Shown: positions 8,057 to 28,538 of the stretch, piece after piece
How positions within the stretch are numbered: the first letter of the stretch is position 1
Layout of the letters: every line of letters starts with the position of its first letter
Assembly: GCA_016202875.1 (NCBI GenBank)
Contig: JACQNX010000047.1
Coordinates: forward strand, 1 to 37,602
Origin: Candidatus Aenigmatarchaeota archaeon
GTDB lineage: Archaea > Aenigmatarchaeota > Aenigmatarchaeia > GW2011-AR5
Length of the DNA: 37,602 nucleotides
Direction: 5' to 3'
Notes under the pieces: model-generated
What the model was told of the DNA's origin: nothing
Database searches by the model: none
The model's input: only the letters and a program-made list of their open reading frames with translations
Translations under genes and position numbers: made by a program

Positions 8057-9232
8057 TTAACCTTCTAATTGTTCGAAGTTTTCGCCTTTCAGCTCTTCCA
8101 AAGTTAAAATCTTCACGCTGCCTGAACGCACGCGTTCGCGGTAGCCCATTCCAACTACGTACTCTACAGTTCTGCGGGATGCGAGATCAACAATGGACTG
8201 GTTAACTTTTCCGTCAAAGATTATTGCATAAACAGTTGTGAACTCCGGCAAAATGTCTGCCAACTCCGAGAGGGGGACTTTTGATATCACCTGCAGCTCC
8301 CTGTCCACGAGACAGGCTGCGCGCGTGCCTATAAGATCTTCAAGGATTTTTACAAATGCCTCTTTTTCTGAGGCGTCTATCTCCTGCACTTCTTCAGAAA
8401 CGTCTTCGATGGGCTTGTTCAATGCCTGATCTACTGGGGCACGCTCGCGCAGGGCTTTGAATATCTGTTTTTTCGTGAGCTCTTCCACTTCCTTGCCCGG
8501 CTCCGCCCATGCTACGTAATCTATCTCTGCAACTGCGAGCAGTTTTTTTAAATCAAGATTGCCACCACGGTCGCCGTCCAAAAATGCTGTTGTTGTTTTT
8601 TCTTTTGTTAGGCCAATTACTGCCTGCGGGATTTTGCTGCCTTCAATGGCGATGACATTCCTGATGCCGTTCTTTAGAAGGTTTATCACATCAGCCCGGC
8701 CTTCAACGATAATAATATCGTCTGATGTGTGGACGTCAGGGCCGCAGCTGAGGCCGTTAAAATTAGAAACCTCCCAGGAGCGCACAGACTCTTTTATCAT
8801 CTCTGATATCTTTTGCGTGTCCGGCATGCCGGTGTCCATCATTGCGCGCAGGATTTCCTTTGCCCTTTCAACAACATAACGCCTCTTCTGGCTGCGGACA
8901 TCCTCAACTTTAACTATGTCTATTTTTGCCTCGCAAGGGCCGACTTTTTCTATTGTTTCCATGGATGCTGCGATGAGGGACGTTTCGCTTGCGTCCAGGC
9001 TGGACGGGATTATGATATCCGCAAAGGCTTTGCCTTTGTTTGATTTCACATTTACCTCTATTCTTCCTATACGGCCTGTGTGCTGCAGCTCGCGCAGATC
9101 GAGATCCGCGCCCAGGAGCCCCTCTGTCTGGCCGAAAATAGCGCCGATTATATCAGGCTTTTCCACTATACTTGTTGCATGCATTCTGGCATGTATCAAA
9201 TACTTTGCAAAATTCTGGGCCAATTTGGCCAT
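8057..9232 (-). CDS. dnaG: Archaeal DnaG-type primase (TOPRIM; exosome-associated in studied archaea)
   Basis: VEKPDIIGAIFGQTEGLLG, VEGRADVINLL, FLDGDRGG, GKEVEEL; GAGGTGG RBS before ATG 9232. Confidence 0.96.
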   Translation of the reverse strand: MAKLAQNFAKYLIHARMHATSIVEKPDIIGAIFGQTEGLLGADLDLRELQHTGRIGRIEVNVKSNKGKAFADIIIPSSLDASETSLIAASMETIEKVGPCEAKIDIVKVEDVRSQKRRYVVERAKEILRAMMDTGMPDTQKISEMIKESVRSWEVSNFNGLSCGPDVHTSDDIIIVEGRADVINLLKNGIRNVIAIEGSKIPQAVIGLTKEKTTTAFLDGDRGGNLDLKKLLAVAEIDYVAWAEPGKEVEELTKKQIFKALRERAPVDQALNKPIEDVSEEVQEIDASEKEAFVKILEDLIGTRAACLVDRELQVISKVPLSELADILPEFTTVYAIIFDGKVNQSIVDLASRRTVEYVVGMGYRERVRSGSVKILTLEELKGENFEQLEG

Positions 9233-9448
9233 AAATACCACCTCTTTTCTTGGGGATGGCAGAAACAGGCCTACGCAGATGGTGCGAATATAAAATCTGT
9301 TTTCAAATACATCGACACACCGATTAACTATAAAACATCAAGACCTATTCTGTCACCAATGGCTGCCTAAGGCGGCCATCTATAAAGTAATGGCATGGAA
9401 ATGCTTTTAAGGCTTTTTCAACGCCCTTTTTCGGCCAAAAATAAAAGA

Positions 9449-10918: not shown

Positions 10919-11296
10919 ATGCTTCGCAGTTATAGGAAAGGTTATGTTGCCGAACTTAGCTTGGTACATATACTTTCTCAAAATGGTTTTATGGTCATCA
11001 GAACGCCTCGCAGCGGAAGAATCAATCTCGCAAGCCCGGACATCATTGCGGCAAAAAACGGCAAGCTAATCGTCATTGAGTGCAAATCGCGTGCAGAGGC
11101 GTTCACTGTCGAAAAGGGGCAACTGCAAGAACTCAGGGAATGGCAGGATAAGGCAGGGGCACTTCCCTATATCGGATGGAAGATTGCGCGCAAGGGGTGG
11201 ACGTTTCTGCACCTTAAGGACGTGGAAGATAACAGGGGGAATGTCGGGAAGAAATTTGCTCTGGAGAAGGGGATGACACTGGAGAAGATCTTGTGA
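10919..11296 (+). CDS. hjc: Archaeal Holliday junction resolvase Hjc
   Basis: KGYVAE..L...GFMVIRTPRSG...PDIIA...IECKS, a PD-(D/E)xK pattern; AGGTGA RBS. Confidence 0.88.
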   Translation: MLRSYRKGYVAELSLVHILSQNGFMVIRTPRSGRINLASPDIIAAKNGKLIVIECKSRAEAFTVEKGQLQELREWQDKAGALPYIGWKIARKGWTFLHLKDVEDNRGNVGKKFALEKGMTLEKIL

Positions 11297-13141: not shown

Positions 13142-14089
13142 CTAAGTTCTGTGCAAGGCCAAAAATTCTTTCGTTTGCCTGAAGAATTCTTTTAGCGTGA
13201 ATTCTGCAAGTTTTTTTGGTGCATCTTTCTCAACCGAGTCAATCAAGGACTGAAAATAGCGCTCTTTTTTTGCCGAAATGTTAAGTAACGGAAATCCCTC
13301 ATCCAGCAAAGTCTTATTCAATATCAGTCTGCATATTCGCTTGTTTCCGTCAAGAAATGGATGCGCTTTGTAAAGATTATAATGTGCTAAAGCCGCCTTT
13401 TCAATTGGATTCAGTCTTGTCAATTTATACCACTCAACAAACCCATCAATCAACCTGTTCAGTCTAGTATAATGCGGCGGTCTGTAAGCGATTTCTTTTC
13501 CAAGAGGATTTTTGGTATCCTGCATGTGCAAATAGACTTGTTGCTTCCTTAGTTTACCTGGAGTTTTTTCTTCAAAGCTTGCCATTATTGTCTTATGCAA
13601 ATCGAGCAAATATTTTTTGTCAAGTATATGGTTTTCTTTTATTGATTCGACAGCTTCTAGCATGTTTTTGCTGATCTGTTCGCGCGTGTTTAAATGCCTG
13701 TTTTTTCCAAAAGCGTTCTGGACATCTCTAAGGCTGACACTAACGTCCTCTGTTGTAAGTGTGGTCAGAGTAAAAAGAATTGTACTGTCAACTTCGTACT
13801 TTCGCTTTCGGGCGCCCGAAAGGGAGGCGAATATATTGTTAAAAGCGTCGCGAAAAAGCAACGCTTTTATCAGGTCGTCTTTTGAAATCAATTTGTTGTC
13901 ATAATGCTTTCCTGCTAATTTTGATATTATTTTCGATTTGAATGGATCTTCTATTTTTGCTACTTCACTTTGCAATGGTTTTTTCGTACCTATATATTTG
14001 CTGAATGTCTTTGACTTGTTCGAAACGAAATAGCTTAGGTCGAGGTAGTAGTATTTTTTCCCGCTAATGGTTTTTGTCCTCAGTGCCAT
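13142..14089 (-). CDS. Fic family protein with an N-terminal beta-sheet putative DNA-binding domain
   Basis: HPFLDGNKRICR Fic motif; N-terminus RTKTISGKKYYYL...FSKYIG. Confidence 0.88.
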   Translation of the reverse strand: MALRTKTISGKKYYYLDLSYFVSNKSKTFSKYIGTKKPLQSEVAKIEDPFKSKIISKLAGKHYDNKLISKDDLIKALLFRDAFNNIFASLSGARKRKYEVDSTILFTLTTLTTEDVSVSLRDVQNAFGKNRHLNTREQISKNMLEAVESIKENHILDKKYLLDLHKTIMASFEEKTPGKLRKQQVYLHMQDTKNPLGKEIAYRPPHYTRLNRLIDGFVEWYKLTRLNPIEKAALAHYNLYKAHPFLDGNKRICRLILNKTLLDEGFPLLNISAKKERYFQSLIDSVEKDAPKKLAEFTLKEFFRQTKEFLALHRT

Positions 14090-14310: not shown

Positions 14311-14643
14311 TTATTCTTTTATGACCCTGCAAATAGAATTTTCAACTTCCGTTATCTTTTCTTTTTTGATCTTGCCTGCTCTGTATAGAATTAGACCCAG
14401 ATCGGCGGTAAATATCTTTCTTGGCCTTACATAGCTTGTTATTTTTAGTTTGCCTTCTCGAAAGTCTTTATATCTTAGCTCGATGGTTTCTGCGCCTTTT
14501 TTTGCTTTGCTTGTTATCTGGCACAGGATTACGTCTCCATATTCTCCTTTTGCTACAACGGCAGCAGGCCGCCTTTTGCTTGCCGAAAGGTCTGAGAAAG
14601 GAAAAGGCAAGACAACAACATCGCCTTTTACAAATCCTTCCAT
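14311..14643 (-). CDS. mazF: Type II toxin, PemK/MazF family endoribonuclease
   Basis: KGDVVVLPFPFSDLSASKRRPA...CQITS...L..TSYVR pattern; overlaps the antitoxin stop. Confidence 0.92.
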   Translation of the reverse strand: MEGFVKGDVVVLPFPFSDLSASKRRPAAVVAKGEYGDVILCQITSKAKKGAETIELRYKDFREGKLKITSYVRPRKIFTADLGLILYRAGKIKKEKITEVENSICRVIKE

Positions 14644-21243: not shown

Positions 21244-21294
21244 TCTTACAACTTGATAATTAGTTTTATAAAGCCATGTTTAACAAAAATACTT

Positions 21295-21565
21295 AACTCC
21301 AACTAAAACCAAGAAACCCTGCAAATTTTATGGAAACCAGACACCTTGATTTCTTGTGGAGGATGTTATTTGTGTTGGTTGCTTGTGGGCTTTCACGAAA
21401 AACGGACAACCTTCCTTTCTTATAACGATGTTATTTGAGGTATATTTATATGGCAGGTTGCAGGAGAAAGGAAGGGGTGTTGGCGATTTTTGAACATATA
21501 TGTTAAGAAACCTTGGTTTCTGATAGAGATAAGTTTATATATGCTGGAAGAGAAATAGGGGTGTT
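21295..21565. other. Probable replication origin (oriC) with ORB-like boxes upstream of cdc6
   Basis: About 370-bp non-coding gap before cdc6. ORB-like boxes against TCCAnnnGAAAnnAAGGGGT: TCCACAAGAAATCAAGGTGT (minus, 21341-21360), TGCAGGAGAAAGGAAGGGGT (plus, 21459-21478), TCTATCAGAAACCAAGGTTT (minus, 21508-21527), with weaker ones near 21298, 21407 and 21545; AT-rich stretches between them. Confidence 0.8.
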
Positions 21566-21612
21566 AGTGTTTTTATTTTTGTTGAACATTTTCATACAGG
21601 TGTGGGTGTGGA

Positions 21613-22872
21613 ATGGAATCAGTGACTACTACAACGGCAAATAACACATCACATATAGCACCGAGCATATCAGCTAATATCTTTTCTCAATACATACAGA
21701 ACGAAGGCGTATTCAAGGATAAAAAATTCCTTTCCTCTTCATTTATTCCACAAACAATACCACACAGGGAACAGGAAATACAGCACATAAGTTCTATGCT
21801 TGCCCCTGTCCTGAAAGGATACAACCCCAACAATGTCTTCATATACGGGACATGTGGAACAGGGAAAACAATCTGCACAAAATTTGTTCTTGGCCAGCTT
21901 GCGGATATCTCCAAAAACAAGGTCACAACACTTTATGTAAATTGCAAGATGAAAAAGGTTGCTGATACAGAGTACCGGCTGTTTGCACAGATGCTTAAAG
22001 ACCTGAATGAATTTGTGCCGGACACAGGGCTGCCCACCGACGTACTTTACAGGAAGTTCTTTGCCAGGATAGAAGAAAGAAAGATGCCTGTAATCATAGT
22101 CCTGGATGAGATAGACGTGCTGCTGAAAAAAGTAGGAGACGAGTTTCTTTATAACCTCACACGCATTAACACAGAGCTGGTAAGGTCGCATGTCACTGTC
22201 ATAGGCATAACAAACGACCTTGCGTGCAGGGATCGGTTAGATGCGCGGGTAAAGTCATCACTGTCAGAAGAAGAGATCATGTTCAAGCCGTACAATGCTG
22301 TGCAGTTAAAAGATATTCTTGGATTTAGGGCCACGATGGGATTCAGGGAAGGCGCTATTGAAGACGGAGCTCTGAGCAAGTGCGCGGCGCTTGCTGCGCA
22401 GGAACATGGAGATGCGCGCAGGGCTTTGGATCTGATGCGAGTGGCTGGAGAGGTAGCAGACCGTCTTGGTGAAAGGGTGGTCACAGAAAAGCATGTAGAC
22501 ATGGCAGAACAGAAGATAAGTTTAGACCGTATTACTGAGGCTGTGCGCATACAACCTAAACAATCACAGGCTGTCCTGTACTCTGCCCTGTTGCTGGAAA
22601 AAAGGAATAAATCACAGAAGAAGTGGACTGACTCACGTCTGCTTACGGGCGATGTTTATAATTCCTACAAAACTGTATGCGAGAAAGGCGGCATGAAAGC
22701 GCTGACACAGAGAAGGGTGAGCGATCTCATAAGCGAGCTGGACATGCTTGGCATAATAAATGCAAGGATTATTTCAAAAGGCAGACACGGCAGGACGCGG
22801 GAGATATCACTGGACATGGCAGAAACCACACTAGAGAAGGTTGAGAAACTCCTCATGGACAGGTTTGAATGA
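21613..22872 (+). CDS. cdc6: Orc1/Cdc6 replication initiator
   Basis: IPHREQEI, Walker A GTCGTGKT, Walker B VLDEID, HGDARRALDL, winged-helix LTQRRVSDLISELDMLG...GRHGRTR. Confidence 0.97.
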   Translation: MESVTTTTANNTSHIAPSISANIFSQYIQNEGVFKDKKFLSSSFIPQTIPHREQEIQHISSMLAPVLKGYNPNNVFIYGTCGTGKTICTKFVLGQLADISKNKVTTLYVNCKMKKVADTEYRLFAQMLKDLNEFVPDTGLPTDVLYRKFFARIEERKMPVIIVLDEIDVLLKKVGDEFLYNLTRINTELVRSHVTVIGITNDLACRDRLDARVKSSLSEEEIMFKPYNAVQLKDILGFRATMGFREGAIEDGALSKCAALAAQEHGDARRALDLMRVAGEVADRLGERVVTEKHVDMAEQKISLDRITEAVRIQPKQSQAVLYSALLLEKRNKSQKKWTDSRLLTGDVYNSYKTVCEKGGMKALTQRRVSDLISELDMLGIINARIISKGRHGRTREISLDMAETTLEKVEKLLMDRFE

Positions 22873-22935: not shown

Positions 22936-24036
22936 ATGGCAAACGCGGGGGCGGTGGAGATATTTTTCAAAAAAGGCAGGCTCCTTACCCCTGAGGCCCT
23001 TCGCTACCTGGAAAACAAGAATGCCGAGAACTTTTTATCAGAGAGCTCTGATCTTGTTGTGGATGTAGAAGACCTGCTTGCCAGGGAAGACAAGATACAC
23101 ATAATCAGAAACATAACAGGGAAAAAGAGCGAGGTCACCACAGCTGATATTGTTCGCTTTTACAATTCCAAATACGAGAAAATGAAAAACATAATTCTCT
23201 CACGCATGCAGAAGAATTTTATCTCGATAAACAAATTAGATACCCAGAGGAGCGAGGTTTGTGTCATCGGCATAGTCAGAGACATTAAGGGCAACGAAGG
23301 GAAGAAGAATATAGAGCTGGAAGATTCAACAGGGTCTGTAACAGTTGTGTTTGAGCCCAACCTTATAGAAGACCTGGAACTGGATGATGTTGTTGCTGTA
23401 CAGGGCATAGCTGCTGGGAAGGTTATGTTCGGCAAAAAAATACTATTTCCAGATGTTCCGCTACGGCAGCCGACAAAAGGCAGTGGGAAGGCATGCTTTA
23501 TCTCTGACCTGCATTTAGATGAGGCACCAAAGCAGGATCTGGAAAAATTTCTGCGCTGGCTTGAGGGGCAGGATACAAGATACCTTTTCGTAGTCGGCGA
23601 TATCGGCGACATCAATATTTTTGAATACCTGGTTGATGCTTACTGCAGAGATAAAAAGGTATTCGTAGCGATGGGCAAAGACGCAGAGGAGATGCCTGGC
23701 TTTCCATCAGAGCTCAAATCAAAAAATGTAATCGCTCTCAGTAACCCCGCACTGGTTGAAATAAATGGCATCAAAATCCTGGTTATAAACAATTTTGACA
23801 TCAAAATGTTGAGGAAAAGGCACCTCGGCAACATAAAACCCATACTTGAAGAAGACTTCATGGCACTAGAAGAACTGCCTGATATTGTGCATTGCGGGCA
23901 CAGCCATGAGGCGAGCATAAATAATTACAAATCCACGACAATAATTAATGCCGGCTCTTTACTCACAAATTTCAGACCGGTAATAGTGGACTTTGCCACG
24001 CGTGAATGCATGCAGGTCGATGTTGCAGGTTTGTAG
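22936..24036 (+). CDS. PolD small subunit (DP1)-like protein, shortened, exonuclease probably inactive
   Basis: DP1-type N-terminus (KGRLLTPEA), OB fold (IGIVRDI...ELEDSTG...DDVVAVQG..FPDVP) and phosphoesterase fold with SDLH, GD, RHL and GHSH, but GNHD replaced by GKDA and HG by NF. Confidence 0.85.
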   Translation: MANAGAVEIFFKKGRLLTPEALRYLENKNAENFLSESSDLVVDVEDLLAREDKIHIIRNITGKKSEVTTADIVRFYNSKYEKMKNIILSRMQKNFISINKLDTQRSEVCVIGIVRDIKGNEGKKNIELEDSTGSVTVVFEPNLIEDLELDDVVAVQGIAAGKVMFGKKILFPDVPLRQPTKGSGKACFISDLHLDEAPKQDLEKFLRWLEGQDTRYLFVVGDIGDINIFEYLVDAYCRDKKVFVAMGKDAEEMPGFPSELKSKNVIALSNPALVEINGIKILVINNFDIKMLRKRHLGNIKPILEEDFMALEELPDIVHCGHSHEASINNYKSTTIINAGSLLTNFRPVIVDFATRECMQVDVAGL

Positions 24037-24077: not shown

Positions 24078-27000
24078 ATGAAAATGCAGATAGTTGATGT
24101 GGATTATTTTTTAAACACAAACAAGCCAGTTGTGAGAATTTTTGGCAGGTCGCAGAATGGCAATGCTGTCTGCATCCTGTACGACCAACTGCTTCCCTAT
24201 TTTTATGTCAAATGTTCTGAAGAGCAGGCTGAAAGAATTAAGGGAATAAAAGAGGTGCGCAGCGTAGAAGACGCAGAGATGTACATACCAATAGGATATC
24301 AAGAAAAAAAGACCCTCCTCAAGAAAATCATTTTACTAAACCCGCAGGATGTGCCAGAAACACGGGACAGAATATCTGCTCTTGGTATCAGAGAGGTGTT
24401 TGAGGCGGACATCATGTTTAAATACAGATTTATGATTGACCATGGTCTTTTTGGCATGCAGTGGATAGATGCAGAATGCACAAAAGCCAACACAAAAGTT
24501 GCAAAGGTGCCGGCTTACTGTGCAACCACAATAAAACCAGTAGAACAAACAGGCAACGCAGAACTTAGAATACTCTCTTTTGACATAGAATGCGTTTCAG
24601 ATGATATCAAGAGAGCGCCTGACGCAAAGAAAGACCCTATAGTCATGATATCCATGGCATTCCACCCTGCGTACAAAGGCAAGAAAAATATTGTTTTTGT
24701 GGCCAAGCACGTTCTAGGAGAAAATACCAAGGGATTTGGTTCAGAAAAGAATATGCTAGAAGAATTTGTAAAGCTTATTGATGACTACGACCCTGATATA
24801 ATCACAGGTTATAATATCAACAATTTTGACTTGCCTTATTTAATGGAGAGGCTTAAGCACAATAAAATTCCCCTCAACATAGGACGATCGGACAAGCCTA
24901 TGTTCGGCAGGACAACGGGCATGACTACAGAGTTCGTAATACCTGGCAGGGTTGTTTTTGATCCTTACCAGATATTAAAGCGCGACCCATGGCTGAAATT
25001 CCAGCGCTATGACCTCAACACAGTGGCAAAGAAAATGCTGAATGAAGAGAAACACAATGTTGAATACAGCGAGATGGCAGCTCTTTGGGCGGGTTCGCGA
25101 GAAGGGCTGAGCAGATTTATAGAGTACGCACGAAAGGACGCTGACCTTTCATTAAGGCTGGTTGTAGAGAAAGGCCTGATGGACAAGTTCTACGAACTTT
25201 CAAAGATTTCTGGCGTTCTCCTGCAGGATGTTTTCGGAGGACAGACACGTCGGGTGGACACCATGATACTGCATGAATTCAAGAAAATGGACTTTGTCAT
25301 GCCGCTCAATCCCTCAAAATCAGACCTTATCAGAAGAGCAAAGGAGCGCGATAAAGAAGGGCTCAAGGGCGCAATAGTCATGGAGCCTAAAAAAGGACTG
25401 CACGCAGACGGCTGTGTCATTGTTCTGGATTTCAAGAGCTTGTACCCTTCGATAATGAGAACGTACAACATATCACCCGATACTTTATTACAGCAGGGCA
25501 ATGCACCACATGAGACATCGCCAACAGGGGCAAAATTTGTAGCTGCAGGAATACAGCAGGGCATTTTGCCTTCTCTGCTAACACAGCTTATAGAAACACG
25601 AAGCAAGATTAAAAAAGAAATGAAGGCCGCATCCGGCGAGAAGAAGAGGATTCTTAATGCAAAACAGCTCGCAATAAAGGACATGTCGAACAGCGTGCAT
25701 GCAAGCACAGATATAGTTGTTCAGGAACCTACAGGCAACTTGCACGTGTGTGAGATAGAAACGCTTTTCAACGAACTGGTGAAGGAGCACCCTGTAAAAA
25801 AAATCGGAGATACAGAGGTAATAGAACTTGACAGATGGCAGACATTAAGCGTAGATGGCAATAAATCATGCTTCAAACCTATGTACGCTATATCAAGGCA
25901 TAAGCATGCGGGCGAATTGACAAGGATCAAGACAGCAATGAGCGAAGTTATGATTACAGATGACCACAGCATCATGGCTATGGCAGGGAGGCAATCAAAC
26001 AGACAAAGAGAAAGCCAGTTTGATGGGCTTGTGGAAAAAGGCGGCAAGGAGGTTTCTGAAGAAGATATCATAGCTCAAGTCAGAAAAGTCTGTCTGCCGG
26101 AAAACGACGTTACATTTAACTGGCTTGAATTTTTAAAGACTTTACCAGAAGAAGAAATTTTAGATATATGTTTGTATATCCCTAAAAGCCTGCAGCTGAA
26201 TAAAAAAGGCTGGCTCAAAAACAGAGTAAAGATGCTTTCTGCATTCAATGGACCGGCAGATTCAGCAACTTTGCAGACGATTGTTGAACGACGTATACTG
26301 AGAAGCTCGGAGGGTGTTTTGATAAATAGAACAGGCTTAACAACAGTCGGCAATTGTGGCATTGTACCTGTATATGAGCCCACAGAAGACGGAGAGGCGC
26401 TGATCGATTTCTACGAAGATTTTACATATGCCAAGGAAGAACCACTGTATTACACACTTCCGATTACAGCTGCACAGAAACTGCCCAAATTTATTGAGCG
26501 GCATTCATTCGTGGCTGTCGGCGGAGCGCATCAAGGCCGCAGAAAGGTTCCTATTCACCTGCCTGTTACGGACGAACTTGCAGAACTTATAGGATGGTTT
26601 GTAGCAGAGGGCAGTACGTACAAGCGGGGTAATTCTTTCAGGTCAACAATATCCAATACAAATAAAAGCCATATCAGACGTATAACGTACCTGATCAAAA
26701 AATGTTTTGGTTACGACGCACGTATATTTAATAAAGATATAACAATGAACACAAAGCTGTTATATCTGTTCTTCAGGCATCTGTGCGGCTCATCCTCTTA
26801 TATGAAACAGGTACCGGATTTTATACTTAATTCCAACACGAAGATCCGCGAAGCATTTATGAAAGGTTACTATAGCGGCGATGGCAATGTAAAAGTGCAC
26901 CGTATTAATACAGTGAGTAAAACTCTGGCTGCACAGTTGAACGTCATGCTAAAAGAGTTCGGTGGCGTGCAGTATAATTATTTTGACGGGCTATACCGCA

Positions 27001-28244
27001 TATCAAGAAGACAGACTTCACACGGGAACAAAATAGTTTCCGGCGATCTTTTCGGGCAGAGGCCAAAGATATCACGATGCGCGTCTTCTGAATACGTGTA
27101 CGACCTTTCTGTCCGCGATACAGAAATGTTCGTAACTGCACAGGGCACAGTCTTGCACAATTCATTCTACGGATATTGTGGGTACACACGTGCGCGACTA
27201 TACAACATAGATGTCGCTGCTTCTATCACTGCGTATGGAAGAGAGAATTTGCAGAAAACGAAGAAACTCATAGAAGAAAACTTTGATGTAGAGGTTATTT
27301 ATGCGGACACAGATTCCGCATTTCTCAAAACAAAGACAATAAACTTAGATGAGGCAAAAAAAATAGGCGAAGGTATAGCCCGGTTTGTCACAGATAATCT
27401 GCCAGGCTATTTGGAACTGCAGTTTGAAAAAATATACAGGACGTTTATCATCCTTACAAAGAAAAGATATGCAGGGCTCAAGTACGAACTTGCAGGCGAT
27501 ACATGGACCAATGAAATAGAGATGCGTGGCATAGAGACTGTGAGAAGAGACTGGTGCCCGCTGGTTTCGCAGGTGATGCTAGATGTTCTGGACATTCTGC
27601 TTAAAGAAGGGGATTTGCAAAAAGCCATCGATGTTGTCAAAGATGTATTAGAAAAACTCCGCCATAACCAGATAGACTTGGACAGGCTTACAATAATAAA
27701 AGGCATTACAAAACATGTTGACAGCTATGAGGGACTGCTGCCACACATTGAACTGGCAAGAAAAATGACCATGAGAAACCCTCAGGCAGCACCAAGAATA
27801 GGAGACAGAATAGGATTTGTTATTATAAGGGGCAACCAACTGCTCTCAAAACGAGCTGAGGATCCGGAATATGTCAAGAAAAATAACATAGAAATTGATT
27901 CTGATTATTATATTCATAACCAGTTGCTGCCACCACTGGAAAGGATATTCACGTCGGTTGGCGTGGAGAAGAGCGAGATACTGGGCAGCGGCAGGCAAGT
28001 CAGCCTCGGAGATGTTATGAACGGCACAAAACGAAAAATGAAACATGACATAGACGTTCGGTATGACCATGCAGACAGCACAGATAAAAAAGAACAGCCG
28101 CTGCAGGGCTGGGAAGCGTTTGTGTGCAAAAAATGTGCCAAGAGTTTCAGGTCAATCCCGCTTCAAGGATCATGTGAATGCGGCGGCGAAATACTAATGA
28201 GCTATCATGGATCTGTGAGCAACAGGGCTGTTATTAACCAGTGA
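24078..28244 (+). CDS. polB: Family B DNA polymerase (intein-containing precursor) with a C-terminal DP2-like Zn finger
   Basis: Exo motifs FDIE, YNINNFD, YARKD; Pol motifs DFKSLYPS, K...N|SFYG, YADTDS, KKRY; C-terminal CKKC...CECGG. 1388 aa, 898 aa after intein removal. Confidence 0.96.
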   Translation: MKMQIVDVDYFLNTNKPVVRIFGRSQNGNAVCILYDQLLPYFYVKCSEEQAERIKGIKEVRSVEDAEMYIPIGYQEKKTLLKKIILLNPQDVPETRDRISALGIREVFEADIMFKYRFMIDHGLFGMQWIDAECTKANTKVAKVPAYCATTIKPVEQTGNAELRILSFDIECVSDDIKRAPDAKKDPIVMISMAFHPAYKGKKNIVFVAKHVLGENTKGFGSEKNMLEEFVKLIDDYDPDIITGYNINNFDLPYLMERLKHNKIPLNIGRSDKPMFGRTTGMTTEFVIPGRVVFDPYQILKRDPWLKFQRYDLNTVAKKMLNEEKHNVEYSEMAALWAGSREGLSRFIEYARKDADLSLRLVVEKGLMDKFYELSKISGVLLQDVFGGQTRRVDTMILHEFKKMDFVMPLNPSKSDLIRRAKERDKEGLKGAIVMEPKKGLHADGCVIVLDFKSLYPSIMRTYNISPDTLLQQGNAPHETSPTGAKFVAAGIQQGILPSLLTQLIETRSKIKKEMKAASGEKKRILNAKQLAIKDMSNSVHASTDIVVQEPTGNLHVCEIETLFNELVKEHPVKKIGDTEVIELDRWQTLSVDGNKSCFKPMYAISRHKHAGELTRIKTAMSEVMITDDHSIMAMAGRQSNRQRESQFDGLVEKGGKEVSEEDIIAQVRKVCLPENDVTFNWLEFLKTLPEEEILDICLYIPKSLQLNKKGWLKNRVKMLSAFNGPADSATLQTIVERRILRSSEGVLINRTGLTTVGNCGIVPVYEPTEDGEALIDFYEDFTYAKEEPLYYTLPITAAQKLPKFIERHSFVAVGGAHQGRRKVPIHLPVTDELAELIGWFVAEGSTYKRGNSFRSTISNTNKSHIRRITYLIKKCFGYDARIFNKDITMNTKLLYLFFRHLCGSSSYMKQVPDFILNSNTKIREAFMKGYYSGDGNVKVHRINTVSKTLAAQLNVMLKEFGGVQYNYFDGLYRISRRQTSHGNKIVSGDLFGQRPKISRCASSEYVYDLSVRDTEMFVTAQGTVLHNSFYGYCGYTRARLYNIDVAASITAYGRENLQKTKKLIEENFDVEVIYADTDSAFLKTKTINLDEAKKIGEGIARFVTDNLPGYLELQFEKIYRTFIILTKKRYAGLKYELAGDTWTNEIEMRGIETVRRDWCPLVSQVMLDVLDILLKEGDLQKAIDVVKDVLEKLRHNQIDLDRLTIIKGITKHVDSYEGLLPHIELARKMTMRNPQAAPRIGDRIGFVIIRGNQLLSKRAEDPEYVKKNNIEIDSDYYIHNQLLPPLERIFTSVGVEKSEILGSGRQVSLGDVMNGTKRKMKHDIDVRYDHADSTDKKEQPLQGWEAFVCKKCAKSFRSIPLQGSCECGGEILMSYHGSVSNRAVINQ
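25692..27161 (+). mobile_element. Intein with LAGLIDADG homing endonuclease in PolB motif B (490 aa)
   Basis: Interrupts KDMSN|SFYG; starts SVHAST, block B ITDDHS, LAGLIDADG-like LIGWFVAEG and FMKGYYSGDG, block F YVYDLSV, ends VLHN followed by Ser+1. Confidence 0.95.
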
Positions 28245-28343: not shown

Positions 28344-28538
28344 ATGGCCAACAGGCACATCAAAGTTATCAACGGAAGAAAATATTACTATGAATCCATA
28401 AGAAAAGGGAAAAAAGTAACCAGCAGATACCTGGGGCCAGTGGGCGAGAGGAAAAGAAAGCTAAGAGAGGCACAGCAGCCGCAGGAACTAGTTCTTGAGG
28501 AACAAGAAATAAGGCCAGAAGAAAATTATATTGGATGA
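28344..28538 (+). CDS. Small basic protein, putative beta-sheet nucleic-acid-binding domain
   Basis: HIKVINGRKYYYESIRKGKKVTSRYLGPV; TATA-like CTTAAATA at 28314-28321; resembles the N-terminus of the Fic protein in this window. Confidence 0.75.
   Translation: MANRHIKVINGRKYYYESIRKGKKVTSRYLGPVGERKRKLREAQQPQELVLEEQEIRPEENYIG

Follow-up and report, generated by a model that had tools for sequence, protein, structure and literature searches.

A family-B DNA polymerase with a C-terminal finger related to DP2 zinc finger III, encoded beside a DP1-like protein in a Candidatus Aenigmatarchaeota genome

The polymerase gene and its tail

The stretch of DNA analysed here, referred to as the window, comprises 37,602 nucleotides of contig JACQNX010000047.1 from assembly GCA_016202875.1 of a Candidatus Aenigmatarchaeota archaeon. 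It encodes a family-B DNA polymerase (PolB) with a short cysteine-containing tail at its C-terminus, preceded by genes for a protein resembling DP1, the small subunit of PolD, and for an Orc1/Cdc6 initiator (Table 1). The tail contains a finger related to that of DP2, the catalytic subunit of PolD. We consider it very probable that this PolB is the replicative polymerase of a DP2-less, Aenigmatarchaeota-type DPANN archaeon, and that its finger tethers the DP1-like protein encoded upstream.

The PolB matches the Pfam families DNA_pol_B (1.7e-109) and DNA_pol_B_exo1 (8.2e-41). Its open reading frame (ORF), 24078-28244, ends in a TGA stop codon at 28242-28244 and is the sole PolB found in the source assembly. 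The translation shows the motifs FDIE, NxxxFD, YxxxD, DFKSLYPS and YADTDS. An intein interrupts polymerase motif B, giving the arrangement KDMSN / S...HN / SFYGY, with Ser at its start, His-Asn at its end and Ser at the +1 position. Its borders were set against intein-free homologues reading KDMSNSFYGY. The homologue P0007 contains an intein at the identical site. PolB frames of 1323-1808 amino acids (aa) occur in some relatives (for example G005, G032, G033 and G035) and frames of about 890-930 aa in most, which suggests that inteins are patchily distributed in the family.

The last 82 residues of the PolB (1307-1388, nucleotides 27996-28241) consist of QVSLGDVM, a 31-residue charged linker, the stretch EAFVCKKCAKSFRSIPLQGSCECGGEILMSYHGSV and a few further residues ending in NQ ahead of the TGA stop. 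A sequence-only reading of the window had described this tail, and its letters match the translation of the ORF exactly. The cysteines C1350, C1353, C1366 and C1368 have the spacing CxxC-12-CxC and make up the one four-cysteine motif in the last 89 residues. Seven homologous PolBs (59-83% identity) carry the tail. An alignment of all eight tails (A1) shows no variation in the four cysteines, the P-L-Q-G loop, C-x-C-G-G and G-S; the linker has gaps and low conservation at columns 29-42.

Table 1. Features of the orc1/cdc6, DP1 and PolB genes, with positions in the window
Feature	Position	Strand	Residues	Remarks
Orc1/Cdc6 initiator gene	21613..22872	+		Pfam Cdc6_C 1.1e-27, Cdc6_lid 3.3e-23, AAA; first gene of the conserved order
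DP1-like small subunit	22936..24036	+	366 aa	OB fold and degenerate calcineurin-like phosphoesterase; directly upstream of PolB
Family-B DNA polymerase (PolB)	24078..28244	+	1388 aa including intein	Exonuclease and polymerase domains
Intein with LAGLIDADG homing-endonuclease domain	25692..27161	+	539-1028 (490 aa)	Pfam Intein_splicing, LAGLIDADG_3
PIP-like box QVSLGDVM	27996..28019	+	1307-1314	Internal, without aromatic pair
Charged linker	28020..28112	+	1315-1345	Second half variable in length and sequence
Zn-finger module	28113..28223	+	1346-1382	Homologous, from profile comparison, to DP2 zinc finger III and the next strand
Last six residues RAVINQ and stop codon	28224..28244	+		Within the predicted DP1 contact

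Relationship of the tail to DP2 zinc finger III

The A1 profile was searched against the PDB (177,635 distinct sequences), where 12 distinct sequences were matched at E ≤ 10. The three best are all PolD DP2 chains (6knb_B, 4.5e-4; 6hms_B and 6t8h_B, 6.7e-4), and the next match, at E 0.17, is about 250-fold worse. The alignment covers DP2 residues ~1119-1158. No chain of eukaryotic Pol alpha, delta, epsilon or zeta appears at E ≤ 10, which links the tail to DP2 rather than directly to the eukaryotic C-terminal domains (CTDs). Comparison of A1 with an alignment of five DP2 C-termini (A3, 105 columns) using hhalign gave a probability of 98.0% and an E-value of 2.1e-13 over 37 columns (tail 47-83 against DP2-CTD 19-57). 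The match reaches past the cysteines to include R-x-x-P-L-x-G and the strand G-S-V. The sequence-only reading had claimed a match to the DP2 C-terminus, and the PDB ranking together with hhalign bears it out. It had also named, as the outcome that would speak against it, best hits to generic zinc ribbons without preference for DP2 or eukaryotic CTDs; this did not occur, DP2 being preferred.

Against a library of 1.84 billion representative proteins the A1 profile has 44 matches at E ≤ 1e-3. Nineteen of these were scanned with Pfam; P0007 had already been identified as a PolB and the other 24 are mostly short fragments. The scanned proteins comprise 12 PolBs or PolB fragments, all with the tail match at the C-terminus, two DP2s (P0034 and P0046), one C2H2 array, one low-complexity sequence and three proteins without a family. 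DP2 is the sole polymerase family other than PolB among the 19.

Judged by these profile comparisons, the tail finger is homologous to DP2 zinc finger III (Zn-III), and the homology covers the knuckle pair of Zn-III and the following strand only. The tail stops 20 residues past its last cysteine; DP2s run for about 60 more residues to a Q-x-x-L-x-x-F motif. The proposal that a module from DP2 was appended to a conventional PolB is therefore upheld as to homology and narrowed to this part of the DP2 C-terminus. The second cysteine pair is C-x-C, as had been pointed out. In the two DP2 clusters that match best, the reading is likewise C-x-C-G-G and then Q-G-S-V, and one of the two has the source label Candidatus Diapherotrites; DP2s of solved structures and of family f13, which belongs to the same class as the window's archaeon, have C-x-x-C. 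Since some DP2s share C-x-C, it is not peculiar to the tail and cannot be counted as an oddity.

Two other candidate relationships were set aside. The C2H2 arrays of PRDM9, which appear when the tail is searched as a single sequence, are sums of weak repeats in which each stretch has an i-Evalue >200, and they are gone with the eight-sequence profile. With the tail alone, the one Pfam match is to zf-DPOE, below its cut-off; the same model matches true DP2s at 23-24 bits, so that nothing in the match is specific to Pol epsilon.

The canonical PIP box has the form Q-x-x-[LIM]-x-x-[FY]-[FYW]. All eight tails share Q1307, S1309 and D1312, with L or I at position 4 and non-aromatic residues at positions 7 and 8 (V, I or L, then M or V). 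The window protein has V and M where F, Y or W is expected and thus departs from the canonical consensus. More distant tailed PolBs have F at position 8. One distant cluster of tailed PolB carries the label Candidatus Aenigmatarchaeota. The tail-less PolBs of f13, like DP2s, terminate in Q-x-x-L-x-x-F: all five f13 PolB frames (762-777 aa) stop 0-3 residues past this motif at the place equivalent to the box. The box is therefore read as a former C-terminal PIP site that is now internal, and degenerate in the order. The earlier statement that typical archaeal PolBs end at this point holds within the phylum, as these five frames illustrate; of the description of the box as PIP-like, the conserved position stands, and the motif itself proves degenerate through the absence of the aromatic pair. 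In this degenerate form the box may still bind PCNA. PCNA (PF00705) was not found in the source assembly. It is present in 15 of 21 relatives, including all seven high-quality genomes and one genome of the same genus, and the miss is accordingly read as incompleteness of the assembly.

The DP1-like protein and the distribution of DP2

The DP1-like protein matches P. abyssi DP1 in the PDB at 2.7e-17 and the Pfam families Metallophos_2 (1.5e-10) and OB fold (1.3e-6). It was aligned with 11 DP1-like proteins of the order and with five DP1s of f13, a DP2-bearing family; the nuclease motifs are numbered I-V. Motif III reads G-K-D-A in the window protein as against G-N-H-D in the DP1s of DP2-bearing kin. 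Its His is found in none of the 12 proteins of the order and in all five of f13, and its Asn, kept in three of the 12, is lost in the window's genus. The motif IV His is kept in eight of the 12; it is lost in the window's genus, and the window protein has Asn instead. The two proteins of the same genus have also lost the first Asp of motif II, and two deletions, of ~20 and ~23 columns, lie beside the motifs. The window protein still has motifs I (D-x-H), II (G-D-x-x-D) and V (G-H-x-H). The full motif set of an active DP1 nuclease is not found in it, and the protein is most likely nuclease-dead, as far as its motifs indicate.

The order orc1/cdc6, DP1, PolB is conserved. At 11 loci of relatives cdc6 lies upstream of DP1 in every case and the PolB start follows in ten; at the eleventh the contig ends ahead of it. 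Among 50 genomes with both a DP1-like gene and a tail, DP1 lies upstream on the same strand in 38, at 2.4-4.0 kb before the tail in 37 and at 8.7 kb in one. A distance of 2.4-4.0 kb corresponds to the length of a single PolB gene, whether or not it carries an intein. In the remaining 12 genomes DP1 is just downstream (one), the genes are convergent neighbours (two) or they lie on separate contigs (nine). Upstream of orc1/cdc6 lies a 370-nt spacer (21244-21612) with an AT-rich palindrome (21487-21510), in which a search for origin-like repeats yielded only a weak 18-nt direct repeat with copies at 21473 and 21557. The spacer is a possible replication origin.

The N-terminal domain of DP2 (DP2_N) was not found in the source assembly, which comprises 815 kb in 85 contigs and is 77.7% complete. 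It was likewise found in none of 61 genomes sampled from the order, 14 of them high-quality. The tail profile matches 53 of the same 61, including all 14 of high quality (44 at E ≤ 7.8e-15, nine more weakly), and a DP1-like protein is present in 53. In a sample of 201 genomes from the phylum DP2_N occurs in nine, namely all eight of family f13 and one of 42 in family f18. The PolB is tail-less in all five f13 genomes examined, where the tail profile matches the DP2 frame itself. Tailed PolB thus occurs where DP2 was not found and tail-less PolB occurs with DP2, a complementary pattern in the genomes searched.

Tail-profile matches in all eight f13 genomes had raised the possibility that a tailed PolB coexists there with DP2. 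This was rejected, as the matches are DP2 frames or frames of ~205 aa. The latter have a lid-like CxxC...CxCGG motif, which makes them putative adenylate kinases. The f13 genomes G065, G075, G085, G147 and G179 (loci L027-L052) encode a short PolB without a tail, and their full-length DP1 retains G-N-H-D intact. In family f3 (G038, G045, G054, G056 and G058) only positions ~43-74 of the tail profile, the finger, are matched, at E-values between 1e-4 and 4e-8 and in frames of at least 841-858 aa; f3 accordingly has a different PIP-like box and linker. In one of these genomes (G054) DP1 is convergent with PolB and not upstream of it.

A complex of the DP1-like protein with the last 89 residues of the PolB was predicted with a score of 0.75 (0.74, 0.75 and 0.75 in three runs), the best of three controls scoring 0.01. 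Of 80 solved complexes 58 reach the mark used for this score, as do 2 of 110 mismatched pairs; these counts hold only roughly here because custom alignments were used. Contacts agree between runs to at least 87% and the partner pLDDT is at least 62. The confidently predicted contacts on the tail are R1358-G1364, E1371-M1374 and N1382-I1386, the first being the invariant R-x-x-P-L-Q-G loop, centred on L1362. On DP1 they comprise residues 63-80 and OB-fold residues 113-150.

Along with the replication cluster, the window contains genes for a DnaG-like Toprim-domain protein (8060-9241, minus strand, 1.1e-8) and an Hjc Holliday-junction resolvase (10919-11293, plus strand, 1.4e-22). A gene for a PemK/MazF-like toxin (14314-14643, minus strand, 1e-9) is found near a Fic/DOC-family gene (13145-14089, minus strand, 1.1e-18). 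The small ORF 28344-28538 directly downstream of PolB has no family match.

Interpretation and comparison with known systems

We propose that the lineage would have lost DP2, leaving PolB as the replicative polymerase, and that some 40 residues homologous to DP2 Zn-III would have been fused behind the original C-terminal PIP-like box of PolB. The finger is the handle that grips DP1 in DP2, and here it would tether PolB to the DP1-like protein. The outcome would be a two-subunit, eukaryote-like holoenzyme in which PolB supplies both polymerase and proofreading activities. Because its nuclease site is degraded, the DP1-like protein would probably be a non-catalytic scaffold, as is the eukaryotic B-subunit. 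The metal of the finger is presumably zinc.

The finger could instead be a generic zinc ribbon which arose independently, has converged with DP2 Zn-III and functions in binding DNA or stabilising the protein, not in holding DP1. Short four-cysteine ribbons are common, weak matches are seen to ShdD, adenylate kinase lids, C2H2 fingers and the ~205-aa frames, and the main text of Kazlauskas et al. (2020, Nucleic Acids Research, PMC7544198) reports that HHpred searches with such motifs also retrieve RpoP, TFIIE-alpha and Nop10. However, the ~250-fold lead of DP2 holds over every other solved Zn ribbon and is joined by the hhalign match; the similarity extends beyond the cysteines; the tail is found together with DP1 but not together with DP2; and the predicted interface is exactly the conserved loop. 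A generic ribbon is largely refuted by these results and has next to no probability. It is marginally less improbable, though still very much so, that the DP2-derived finger binds Fe-S, which would render holoenzyme assembly redox-sensitive. The four invariant cysteines and the unusual C-x-C second pair would suit such a cluster, and CysB of Pol delta and zeta is described as binding Fe-S in PMC7544198; the homologous Zn-III of DP2 is given there as a zinc site, however, and C-x-C is also present in bona fide DP2s. Retention of some nuclease activity by the DP1-like protein, which would make the complex a polymerase with two exonucleases and DP1 more than a scaffold, is improbable too. Motifs I, II and V are present in the window protein and three of 12 relatives keep the motif III Asn. 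Against this, the motif III His is lost in all 12, the genus has in addition lost Asn of motif III and His of motif IV, two same-genus proteins lack the first Asp of motif II, the ~20- and ~23-column deletions lie alongside, and PMC7544198 calls the Aenigma DP1 group inactivated.

A different origin of the arrangement is conceivable, with the conserved orc1/cdc6-DP1-PolB order as the trace of an in-place swap. By recombination a PolB coding sequence would have entered the DP2 gene of a cdc6-DP1-DP2 cluster close to an origin, and only the DP1-binding finger of that DP2 would have survived. The finger would then be a relic of DP2 left in place and not a moved domain, and the nuclease-dead DP1, not PCNA, would perhaps be the main link to the replisome, as the internal PIP box has lost its aromatic pair in the order. 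The order cdc6-DP1-DP2 is known from Pyrococcus. In f13 DP1 and DP2 lie on different contigs in all five genomes, and in none of the five is cdc6 or PolB found within ~1.5 kb on either side of DP1. Both observations weigh against an in-place swap, which we regard as unlikely.

Several points tell against a replicative PolB that holds DP1 through a DP2-type finger. In a genome that is 77.7% complete the DP2 miss proves nothing alone, and one f18 genome of 42 does have a DP2 match, on a 3-kb contig. Searched against the PDB with phmmer as a single sequence, the tail matches DP2 marginally (E 0.033-0.086), below the PRDM9 arrays, and its zf-DPOE match of 14.4 bits is below the cut-off of 21. The tail also lacks what follows Zn-III in DP2, some 45 residues of helices and the terminal Q-x-x-L-x-x-F PIP box. 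DP1 and the tail are on separate contigs in nine of the 50 genomes. As DP1-DP2 complexes have already been solved, the score of the predicted complex may reflect likeness to them and may not be independent evidence. The yeast two-hybrid assay in PMC12680538 (Nat Ecol Evol 2025) used another representative and not the window protein, and that paper describes the CTD of Aenigmatarchaeota as degenerate and as differing in its predicted structure.

The arrangement of PolB with a DP2-type finger is already known in this lineage, and the window provides a further example. The PolB type was described as 'B6-aenigma1' of Aenigmarchaeota in PMC7544198, and PMC12680538 adds a binding test: in its main text AlphaFold3 and yeast two-hybrid results support binding of DP1 to Aenigmatarchaeota PolB-DP2CTD, and PolBs without the CTD do not bind DP1. 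The internal PIP-like box and the orc1/cdc6-DP1-PolB order are absent from the main texts of both papers, although their supplements may hold them, and these features may so far be unreported. The C-x-C knuckle common to the tail and some DP2s is likewise absent from both main texts. Our literature search returned no further paper on a PolB with a DP2-derived CTD of this type. The details added here are the complementary pattern of tailed PolB and DP2 across the phylum, the tight orc1/cdc6-DP1-PolB linkage, the retained and degenerate internal PIP-like box, and the C-x-C knuckle common to some DPANN DP2s.

A PolB core with a DP2 finger and a dead DP1 would be an archaeal counterpart of the eukaryotic architecture of catalytic subunit and B-subunit. 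This bears on the assembly of eukaryotic replicative polymerases from parts of PolB and PolD, a point made for this lineage in 2020 (PMC7544198) and followed by a yeast two-hybrid test in 2025 (PMC12680538).

The window PolB resembles B6-aenigma1 PolB, as described in PMC7544198, in its single C-terminal four-cysteine motif nearest to DP2 Zn-III, in its occurrence in genomes without DP2, and in the presence of a DP1 that is kept and inactivated; DP1 binding is reported from yeast two-hybrid and AlphaFold3 results in PMC12680538. Nothing essential differs between the two as far as these features go. With the CTD of PolD DP2 (6hms, 6t8h and 6knb) the tail shares F-x-C-x-x-C-x-x-x-[FY]-R-x-x-P-L-x-G-x-C-x(1,2)-C-G-G and the next strand, and its predicted contact is with the OB-fold region of DP1, as in the DP1-bound DP2 CTD. 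Unlike the solved DP2s, which have C-x-x-C, the tail has C-x-C as its second pair, and it has neither the helices nor a terminal PIP box. Eukaryotic Pol alpha, delta, epsilon and zeta have the architecture proposed here, in which a PolB core is followed by a C-terminal metal-binding module gripping a nuclease-dead homologue of DP1, and in Pol delta, too, proofreading is carried out by the PolB exonuclease; where the eukaryotic CTDs have two metal-binding motifs, CysA and CysB, the tail has a single one, and it lacks CysA and a helical bundle. The PolB3-DP2CTD of Baldrarchaeia similarly combines a PolB with a DP2-derived CTD in genomes with DP1 and without DP2, and is positive in the yeast two-hybrid assay of PMC12680538. 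By the description given there, the Baldrarchaeial CTD differs from that of Aenigmatarchaeota in being longer and in having a structure like those of DP2 and the eukaryotic CTDs.

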